This document shows positions 3,584-3,880 of a DNA stretch of 48,184 nucleotides, piece by piece. Made by a program: the position numbers and the translations under genes. The notes under the pieces were generated by a model. It saw only the letters and a program-made list of their open reading frames with translations. It was not told the origin of the DNA and ran no database searches. The stretch's first letter is position 1. The number at the start of each line of letters is the position of its first letter. The stretch is from an uncultured bacterium (GTDB lineage Bacteria > Arandabacterota > Arandabacteria > Arandabacterales > Arandabacteraceae), in contig CAZRAU010000009.1 of NCBI GenBank assembly GCA_964598025.1, positions 2,485 through 50,668 on the forward strand. Direction: 5' to 3'.

Positions 3584-3880
3584 TTACCTACTAGGATCCT
3601 TCCTAAAGGCAGCAGGAAGCCTCTCAGCCATCTTGCGAAGCTGAAGTCTCTGCTCTTCCCAGTTGATAAACACCCTGCCCAGCAATGGGATGTCGACCAC
3701 CAGTTGCGTCTCGGATGAACAGCACAACTGCACCTGAGAACAACCCCCGTCTCTTCCGCGCATCCCTTCAACAATATCAGGATCGCCATAACTGGGGTGT
3801 TTGGGGCCGGCCGCCACACTGCCACACAAGATGAGGGAAAGAAGCAGGCATAGCAGAATGCACAAACGTGTCTTCATCAT
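3584..3880 (-). CDS. small secreted protein (98 aa) with Sec signal peptide, unknown function
   Basis: MMKTRLCILLCLLLSLILCGSVAA|GPKHPSYGDPDIVEG...; GGAGG RBS and a near-consensus promoter directly upstream. Confidence 0.8.
   Translation of the reverse strand: MMKTRLCILLCLLLSLILCGSVAAGPKHPSYGDPDIVEGMRGRDGGCSQVQLCCSSETQLVVDIPLLGRVFINWEEQRLQLRKMAERLPAAFRKDPSR

Follow-up and report, generated by a model that had tools for sequence, protein, structure and literature searches.

A predicted exported protein with a conserved G-D-x-D segment and the TPR-sigma-54 activator encoded beside it: a possible ligand and receptor in three bacterial phyla

RRNPP systems (Rap/Phr, NprR/NprX, PlcR/PapR, PrgX, Rgg/SHP and AimR/AimP) place the gene of a cytoplasmic TPR-type regulator beside that of a small exported pro-peptide. 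They are defined as two-gene systems and assigned to Bacillota and to the mobile elements and phages of these bacteria, and the cell-to-cell signals of other phyla are described as typically small molecules (PMC10075063). We report here on a gene pair of related layout in an uncultured bacterium of the Arandabacterota, found in a stretch of 48,184 nucleotides of contig CAZRAU010000009.1 (the window; the genome is referred to as G000 and the contig as C9). The pair consists of a small gene, whose 98-residue product belongs to an unannotated family, and, directly downstream on the same strand, the gene of a sigma-54 activator with an N-terminal TPR domain (Table 1). A sequence-only reading of the window, made by a model that saw the letters and a list of open reading frames (ORFs), had proposed that the small protein or a processed fragment of it could be the ligand of this TPR domain. 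We find that the two genes recur together in three phyla, and we tentatively favour direct recognition of the small protein by the activator, a view that is weighed below against two serious alternatives.

Linkage of the small gene and the activator gene

The activator gene lies directly downstream of the small gene in all six public loci and, where the contig extends, genes for DksA (5/6), TrkH (4/6) and arginine decarboxylase (4/6) are found upstream. Within the phylum, 18 genomes were compared. A profile of class A, the class to which the window's small protein belongs (classes are defined below), matched a small gene in 16 of these genomes, and an orthologue of the TPR domain was present in all 18. 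The small gene and the activator gene were adjacent in 15 of the 16, the remaining genome (G013) having both at contig ends. The two genomes lacking a class-A profile match, as well as the weaker TPR paralogues found elsewhere, have upstream signal-peptide ORFs of their own with a related motif.

When all loci combining TPR repeats with a sigma-54 AAA+ domain were counted across the 18 genomes, every one of them (39/39) was preceded by a small signal-peptide ORF bearing G[DG][PHDE][DE], 38 being detected by script and one (L042) by eye. The count covers loci with at least 300 nt of readable upstream sequence and ORFs on the same strand, of about 91-141 aa by script; loci truncated upstream, including L097, L099 and L101, fall outside it. 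An upstream small signal-peptide ORF of the GDxD type was likewise present at all five loci where the contig stops short of the AAA domain, and at none of the seven encoding TPR proteins without a sigma-54 domain.

The converse search, starting from the small protein, gave a similar picture. A profile built from all classes returned 48 hits at E <= 3.3e-8, every one of them in the 18 phylum genomes, with 2 to 5 in each, and 47 of these are followed by a TPR-type ORF, the 48th (G013:C474) lying at a contig edge. It should be noted that, among the 47, two (G000:C5 and G008:C228) show only the first part of the TPR ORF before the contig ends, and one (G001:C178) has an apparent frame break. The sequence-only reading had named homologues without a TPR regulator nearby as evidence that would speak against its proposal; we found none, all strong hits in the phylum being beside a TPR-type activator gene or at a contig edge.

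The window's genome illustrates how the pair is multiplied. Its 152 occurrences of the motif reduce to eight frames that pass a scan for a hydrophobic stretch followed by GD[PH]D, and the four small ORFs among these all precede TPR activator genes: the one in the window and three others, on contigs C3, C151 and C5 (Table 1). The motifs of the three further modules are GDPDWPAF, GDPDCPW and GDPDDLV, and a fifth activator gene of this genome (C17) is cut at its 5′ end. Paralogous modules sit in differing neighbourhoods, in which only the small-gene/activator pair is kept.

The small proteins fall into five classes according to the motif that they carry. Class A has AGPKxPxxGDPDI[VYFW]E, with GDDDIPE in family f2 and GDHDIPQ in family f3; class B has GP[KR]PxxWGDPDWP[AS], class C GDPDE[FYV]Q, class D GDHDIYQ and class E GGDELES. 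In a tree of 38 activators (a quick IQ-TREE search, leaving out L042, a duplicate of L058, and the truncated loci), each motif class corresponds to a single clade with a support of 100 in the Shimodaira-Hasegawa-like approximate likelihood ratio test (SH-aLRT). The classes require four changes on this tree, which is the minimum, compared to a mean of 20.1 when they are shuffled, and none of 200 shuffles gave a number as low. On this tree, small-gene/activator pairs are shown to have been duplicated as units.

The pair is also present outside the phylum. Of 133 genomes of other phyla, 18 gave weak profile matches; five were inspected, and two of these (L121 and L126) are true modules with a TPR gene downstream. 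In the phylum of L121, 8 of 12 genomes have a match at E <= 0.001, and a TPR match lies alongside in 8 of 9 places. In that of L126, where 8 of the 121 sampled genomes have a match at the same threshold, the corresponding figure is 7 of 10, the remaining places being one diverged pair and two apparent false hits. Ten loci of the other phyla were extended: a sigma-54 AAA+ domain was found downstream in all ten and TPR repeats, by tblastn, in nine. Their motifs (GDPDQPQ, GDPDIP[NE], GDPDGPQ, GDPDMP[QT], GDPDEPS and similar) are again accompanied by a C-terminal hydrophobic/basic tail. Globally, comparison at the sequence level establishes an obligate, ancient and one-to-one gene pair in three phyla.

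The small gene, the junction and the two proteins

The sigma-70-type promoter of the small gene stands out from its surroundings, one TTGACA-17-TATATT site being found compared to 0.2 expected from shuffled sequences. It is kept as TTGAC[AG]-N17-TATA[GT]T in all 14 orthologous class-A loci of the junction alignment, as is the Shine-Dalgarno sequence, whereas the intergenic DNA farther 5′ has diverged. The sequence-only reading thus had the ORF right, together with its promoter and ribosome-binding site, and the distance of 53 nt from the small-gene stop codon to the activator start is also as it had stated, the ATG at 3530 being kept at 14/14 loci.

The first 24 residues of the small protein have the layout of a signal peptide, as the same reading had recognized: an n-region, a Leu/Ile/Cys-rich core of 15 residues and a c-region whose SVAA site has the V (-3) and A (-1) expected of a signal peptidase I substrate. 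On the Kyte-Doolittle scale, the most hydrophobic 19-residue segment of the protein (mean 2.77) begins at residue 6 and includes the c-region. Since AxA-type sites are also present in the homologues, we infer that the protein is exported by Sec and cleaved after A24 (SVAA|GPK). Two other types of signal peptide were considered and rejected. A lipoprotein signal would require a lipobox [LVI][ASTVI][GAS]C, which is missing (LILC has Leu at -1), and the Cys itself is absent from several orthologues (e.g. P0023, P0030, L005, L006 and L035-L037). A Tat signal is at odds with the very hydrophobic core and with the lack of a twin-arginine consensus in class A.

Searching 5.8 billion proteins with the small protein (P0001) yielded 21 sequences at E <= 0.01 among 24 candidates, the query included. 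These homologues are 80-98 aa long and every one of them is unnamed or called 'hypothetical'. When 1.84 billion cluster representatives were searched without a word index, 11 matched at E <= 0.001. The small proteins of classes A-D, the four of the five classes that were scanned, matched nothing in Pfam or NCBIfam, the best score in a search of the ESM Atlas (0.80) was under the useful range, and no fused or longer form appeared at E <= 0.001 among 8000 candidates, which is weak evidence that none exists.

Conservation is strongest in GPKHPSYGDPDIVEG, directly after the signal peptide. The 21 close members share 25 invariant columns, mainly in the blocks A24-R41 and L81-A91. In 19 divergent members, only A24, P26, G32, D33, D35 and I36 remain invariant, with G25, P29 and P34 conserved in at least 90%, and in 38 small proteins of all classes, G32, D33 and D35 are the sole columns at or above this level. 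The invariant residues A24, P26, G32, D33, P34 and D35 are encoded by 4, 4, 4, 2, 3 and 2 synonymous codons, respectively, in 12 orthologues; that synonymous codons vary where the residues do not indicates that selection acts on the protein. The GDPD segment singled out by the sequence-only reading is therefore a conserved element, with flanks that differ by class. The CSQVQLCC stretch, with its three cysteines, to which that reading had also drawn attention, is present but is not a conserved feature: the cysteines are not kept and C47 is an insertion unique to the window's sequence. Self-cleavage of the Asp-Pro bond at GD|PD was considered as a general mechanism and discarded, families f2 and f3 carrying GDDD or GDHD.

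An AlphaFold2 (AF2) model of the small protein (19-row alignment) had a mean predicted local distance difference test score (pLDDT) of 63, with a signal helix at residues 2-24, an unstructured region from 25 to 58, a beta-hairpin (59-64/68-73) and a helix at 74-90. In the other classes, the counterpart of the hairpin, by alignment, is a C-terminal hydrophobic/basic tail. The element common to the classes is an alternation of hydrophobic and basic residues around Gly, e.g. VVDIPLLGRVFINW, ISIDFSGKSFFLEK and YVVRVLGLTIVIRR, which forms the end of the protein in classes B-D. The class-A extension beyond it is basic (7 K+R among the last 25 residues) and contains LRKMAERLPAA, of which L81, R82, K83, A85, E86, R87, P89, A90 and A91 are invariant in the 21 sequences of the close clade.

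The 53-nt junction is conserved in its own right. GCGGGGAAAGGGTGA, just ahead of the activator ATG, is invariant in 14/14 junctions, and CACCCTT is conserved about 12-14 nt 5′ of it in the same alignment. The two can be folded into a hairpin in which the activator gene's purine-rich ribosome site is base-paired (Table 1). RNAalifold predicted seven consensus pairs with no compensatory changes, both arms being invariant, and the 5′ arm begins 23 nt after the stop codon of the small gene. No Rfam match was found in window positions 3400-4000, and no terminator-like site between the two genes. The longer frame offered by the ORF finder, with TTG 3566 as the activator start, was rejected in favour of the conserved ATG; the apparent conservation of 'RGKGD' in the TTG frame is due to the invariant nucleotide element. 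We consider that promoter, small gene, hairpin-bearing spacer and activator gene probably make up one transcription unit.

The junctions are different in classes B and C (loci L054, L055, L067, L066, L068, L070, L082 and others). In class B, the gap from stop to start is 2 nt in 7 of the 12 loci shown (GDPDWP and GDPESPA types), with GTG or TTG as the activator start, and at these 2-nt junctions the final Arg codons of the small ORF (cggaga) provide the ribosome site of the activator gene. The class-C gap is about 25-30 nt, with GCGGGGAGG, which resembles the invariant class-A element. The residue pattern at the C-terminus of the small protein may therefore be shaped in part by the downstream ribosome site.

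Pfam matches of the activator comprise TPR_12, TPR_2 and TPR_1, PF00158 (E 1e-62) and HTH_8 (E 7.5e-15), and the protein falls under the curated cut-off of every named activator family among the 25 best listed in NCBIfam. The genome has an rpoN gene (G000:C9:53431-53907). The loop that contacts sigma-54, usually GAFTGA, reads GAFTDA in 13 of 14 class-A rows (the other gave no match to the pattern), so that F and T are retained; in the other classes GAFTGA or GSFTGA predominates, but GAFTDA is also seen in three class-C rows. Class-B activators have no GAF domain. The most hydrophobic 19-residue segment of the activator (Kyte-Doolittle mean 1.73) lies inside the GAF domain, and the protein appears to have no membrane segment. 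As a side observation, L099 (G012:C78), L101 (G011:C28) and L097 (G009:C47) are open frames of 1142-1618 aa that join TPR repeats to a region matching sigma54-AAA+, and two of the three begin, as judged by eye, with Ser/Thr kinase-like sequence.

The modelled TPR domain is a superhelix of 25 helices (pLDDT 89, predicted template modelling score 0.85). Its best Foldseek neighbours in the PDB, at E 2e-11 to 2e-9, are TSK/BRU1 (7t7t, with H3.1), LGN/Pins complexes (3sf4, 3ro2, 4a1s and 4wng) and APPBP2 (8jal, with a degron), OGT and subunits of the APC/C also being among the best matches. Most of these neighbours were solved with partner proteins or peptides, to go by the entry titles (NuMA, Inscuteable and Frmpd in the case of LGN/Pins), and in them the partner peptide runs inside the channel of the superhelix. 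Asn160, Asn201 and Asn241, spaced by 40 residues, are invariant in 16 orthologues of the domain; LGN grips the peptide backbone with such an Asn ladder.

The class-A pair is embedded in an extended block of conserved gene order (AsnRS, hsp20, pyruvoyl arginine decarboxylase, TrkH, DksA, small gene, activator, sigma-70-family sigma factor and radical-SAM-like protein), which spans window positions 1-9200 and G000:C9:1-2485. The DksA/TraR-type zinc-finger protein (PF01258, E 2.7e-14; window 3964-4545, minus strand) has an N-terminal extension of about 75 residues that is basic and rich in Lys, Ser and Gly. About 40 nt ahead of the gene for the alpha-crystallin-type Hsp20 (about 7249-7695) lies a sigma-54 promoter-like sequence, CTGGCATATCAATTGCA (7194-7209, plus strand), and TGGCA[CT]-N5-TTGC also precedes hsp20 in L002, L005 and L006, i.e. 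in 4/4 loci having this gene; no hsp20 match was obtained for the closest relative, L001. A candidate regulator of hsp20 is the class-A activator, whose gene lies within this block at a distance of 3.3 kb.

Table 1. Features of the small-gene/activator pair, in window coordinates, and further small ORFs of the same genome, in contig coordinates
Feature	Position	Strand	Basis or remark
Small gene, 98-aa exported protein (predicted) of unannotated family (P0001)	3584..3880	-	ORF translation, homologues, synonymous codon variation
Sigma-70-type promoter: -35 TTGACA 3940-3935, 17-nt spacer, -10 TATATT 3917-3912	3912..3940	-	11/12 consensus matches
Shine-Dalgarno GGAGG of small gene, 6 nt ahead of ATG	3887..3891	-	Sequence; GGAGGCG kept in 14/14 loci
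Signal peptide (predicted), residues 1-24	3809..3880	-	n-region MMKTR, hydrophobic core, c-region SVAA
Conserved post-signal segment A24-R41 (AGPKHPSYGDPDIVEGMR); GDPD core, residues 32-35, at 3776-3787	3758..3811	-	Invariant columns; disordered in AF2 model
Predicted beta-hairpin, residues 59-73 (LVVDIPLLGRVFINW)	3662..3706	-	AF2 strands 59-64 and 68-73, pLDDT about 63-71
Basic C-terminal extension, class A only, residues 74-98	3587..3661	-	AF2 helix 74-90, low confidence
Conserved RNA hairpin (predicted), UCACCCUUU (3561-3553) / AAAGGGUGA (3540-3532)	3532..3561	-	Pairs purine-rich ribosome site of activator gene
Activator: TPR (about 12 repeats) - GAF - sigma54 AAA+ - Fis-type helix-turn-helix (HTH)	480..3530	-	Pfam domains
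Further small signal-peptide ORF	G000:C3:46662-47021	-	Upstream of TPR-type activator gene
Further small signal-peptide ORF	G000:C151:46-447	+	Upstream of TPR-type activator gene
Further small signal-peptide ORF	G000:C5:72181-72561	+	TPR-like ORF starts just before contig end

What the small protein may do

The explanation that we favour, with some reserve, is that the exported protein, or a fragment of it bearing GDPD, is the ligand of the activator's TPR superhelix. The small protein would be exported by Sec and cleaved after SVAA, giving a largely disordered mature chain of about 74 residues, with GPKxPxxGDPDI[VY]EG at the N-terminus followed by a short beta-hairpin and a basic tail. The mature protein or its GDPD fragment would bind the N-terminal TPR superhelix of the adjacent activator, and binding would switch the AAA+ motor. 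The specificity of each paralogous activator for its own small protein would come from the class-specific residues on either side of the invariant G-D-x-D. The two partners could meet in either of two ways: by processing and re-uptake, as in RRNPP systems, or by capture of the pre-protein in the cytoplasm before export, in which case the rate of export would set the state of the activator.

We favour direct recognition because TPR is the one sensor that every class possesses, because the partner resembles a peptide and because the flanks of its motif are class-specific. The predicted fold of the TPR domain, which is of a peptide-binding type, points the same way, and the disorder predicted for the GDxD segment is as expected of a peptide that binds in a groove. 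Prediction of a complex between residues 30-540 of the activator (16-row alignment) and residues 25-98 of the small protein scored 0.00 in two runs, and speaks neither for nor against binding.

Several observations weigh against this view. The first is topology, the mature protein being placed by its signal peptide outside the cytoplasmic membrane and the activator apparently having no segment to reach it. As to the canonical route of re-import, a search for the Opp-type binding protein (PF00496) gave no hits in this 95.7% complete genome although the same search found it in 11 of 14 control genomes; the POT transporter (PF00854) was not found there either. An OPT transporter and CstA are present. 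We rejected OPT as a dedicated importer: it occurs in 96 of the 121 genomes of the third phylum, yet was not found in the module-bearing G184 and G208. A sigma-54 promoter ahead of the small genes was also sought; only one of 44 upstream regions scored 9/11 consensus positions, at a site within coding sequence, so that nothing points to an autoinduction loop of the kind often seen in quorum sensing. Since neighbouring genes are passed on jointly, the match between motif class and activator clade is by itself no proof of interaction. Lastly, a G-D-x-D core shared by every class and phylum would fit equally well if its reader were the same throughout, be it a protease, a metal ion or the export machinery, and the ligand model assigns no role to the other conserved element, the hairpin or tail at the C-terminus.

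These last two points are accommodated by one of the two alternatives that we take most seriously, in which the small protein acts in the periplasm or envelope with no direct contact to the TPR domain. It could be a protease bait, a reporter of envelope stress or a feedback inhibitor, its signal reaching TPR or GAF through a membrane component or a small molecule; the 'periplasmic anti-activator' raised by the sequence-only reading comes under this heading. Such a role agrees with an exported protein and a cytoplasmic activator. The existence of two conserved elements, GDxD and the C-terminal amphipathic hairpin or tail, suggests a small protein that has its own partners rather than a mere pro-peptide, and a single envelope factor could recognize the invariant GDxD in all cases. 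Precedents are provided by ZraP and CpxP, small periplasmic accessory proteins in sigma-54 or envelope-stress systems. We nevertheless regard an indirect role as doubtful. ORF lists, read without family searches, showed no gene for a membrane sensor, transporter or protease around four paralogous modules of the window's genome, and the neighbours differ from one module to the next. In class-B activators, which lack GAF, TPR is the sole remaining sensor. Furthermore, a strict one-to-one pairing, duplicated as a unit and found in three phyla, is better explained by direct recognition.

The second serious alternative, which we think unlikely, is that the small ORF is a cis-acting export monitor similar to SecM, VemP or MifM, whereby the yield of activator from the same mRNA would depend on how the small protein is translated and exported. 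The nascent chain would report on export or on the state of the envelope, and the ribosome on the small ORF would open or close the ribosome site of the activator gene. The problem of topology then disappears. The arrangement of the genes is suggestive, in that the small ORF invariably precedes the activator gene at close range on the same strand (2 nt in 7/12 class-B loci, about 25-30 in class C and 53 in class A), all members keep the signal peptide, and an invariant hairpin covers the ribosome site of the activator gene in all 14 class-A loci. The conserved LRKMAERLPAA lies 7-8 codons before the stop, where known arrest motifs are found. However, it is the N-terminal GDxD segment and not the C-terminus that is best conserved, which a monitor leaves unexplained, and the C-terminal tails of other classes have a hydrophobic/basic pattern with no fixed sequence. 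The class-A hairpin, whose arm begins 23 nt past the stop, would be out of reach of a ribosome paused within the ORF, and it has no compensatory changes in its support. In addition, the known monitors control the translocation factor that is sensed rather than a transcription factor with a large sensor domain.

That the small protein is an unrelated neighbour, an ordinary exported protein caught in a conserved syntenic block, is very improbable and close to refuted: the class-A module does lie inside such a block, where adjacency is weak evidence, but paralogous modules in differing neighbourhoods keep only the pair, 39/39 activators have a small gene, all 48 strong hits lie beside an activator gene or at the edge of a contig, and two other phyla have the pair as well.

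If the small protein is indeed a ligand of the TPR superhelix, the module would represent a new input logic for sigma-54 activators, and peptide signalling beyond Bacillota would have a testable candidate. Should it be an export monitor instead, control of the SecM type would be extended to a transcription factor. Either way, the two genes deserve to be annotated and studied as a unit.

Comparison with described systems

Regulation of an AAA+ activator by a separate protein rather than by phosphorylation is a property that the module would share with PspF-PspA, NifA-NifL and HrpS-HrpV. The partners in those systems, whether cytoplasmic or peripherally bound to the membrane, target the AAA+ domain or work via GAF/PAS. 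To our knowledge, none of PspA, NifL and HrpV is a small Sec-exported protein, and none of PspF, NifA and HrpS has an N-terminal TPR superhelix. The structural neighbours of the TPR domain, LGN/Pins-type proteins, TSK/BRU1 and APPBP2, are eukaryotic scaffold proteins with 12-22% identity to it. The match with them is a likeness of fold class only; TPR superhelices match one another broadly, and the match says little about the ligand.

SecM-secA, VemP-secDF2 and MifM-yidC2 likewise place a small ORF that carries an export signal ahead of the regulated gene, with conservation towards the C-terminal end of this ORF and a stem-loop over the downstream ribosome site, to which the predicted class-A hairpin would correspond. 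They differ from it in what lies downstream, a translocation factor instead of a TPR-GAF-sigma54 activator. In the module, moreover, the strongest conservation is N-terminal, and the hairpin would be beyond the reach of a ribosome paused in the ORF.

RRNPP systems come closest. Like them, the module puts a cytoplasmic TPR-type regulator beside the gene of a small, apparently exported protein, and occurs as several paralogous pairs per genome, each with its own variant of the peptide. The hosts, on the other hand, belong to three phyla of mostly uncultured bacteria and not to Bacillota, and the output is a sigma-54 AAA+ activator with a C-terminal Fis-type HTH. The small gene is upstream in the same operon and its product is longer (about 91-141 aa). 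The conserved motif directly follows the signal peptide, whereas the peptide of an RRNPP precursor is located towards its C-terminal end. The search of the window's genome for an Opp-type binding protein gave no hits, and no RRNPP receptor was among the listed Foldseek matches of the TPR domain in the PDB. The literature search, which covered listings and the beginnings of abstracts, with subscription journals outside its reach, returned no paper on a module of small exported protein and TPR-sigma-54 activator.

In its broadest form, the favoured explanation would have Sec-exported G-D-x-D pro-signals each read by their own TPR-sigma-54 activator, giving 2 to 5 private channels per cell in at least three phyla, an extension that we consider rather improbable. 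Were it true, the module would play the part that RRNPP systems play in Bacillota, but with another receptor output, motif position and route of uptake. In its working, the module is most like an RRNPP pair, yet it fails several of the features that define these systems, and we conclude that it stands beside the RRNPP family and is not a member of it.

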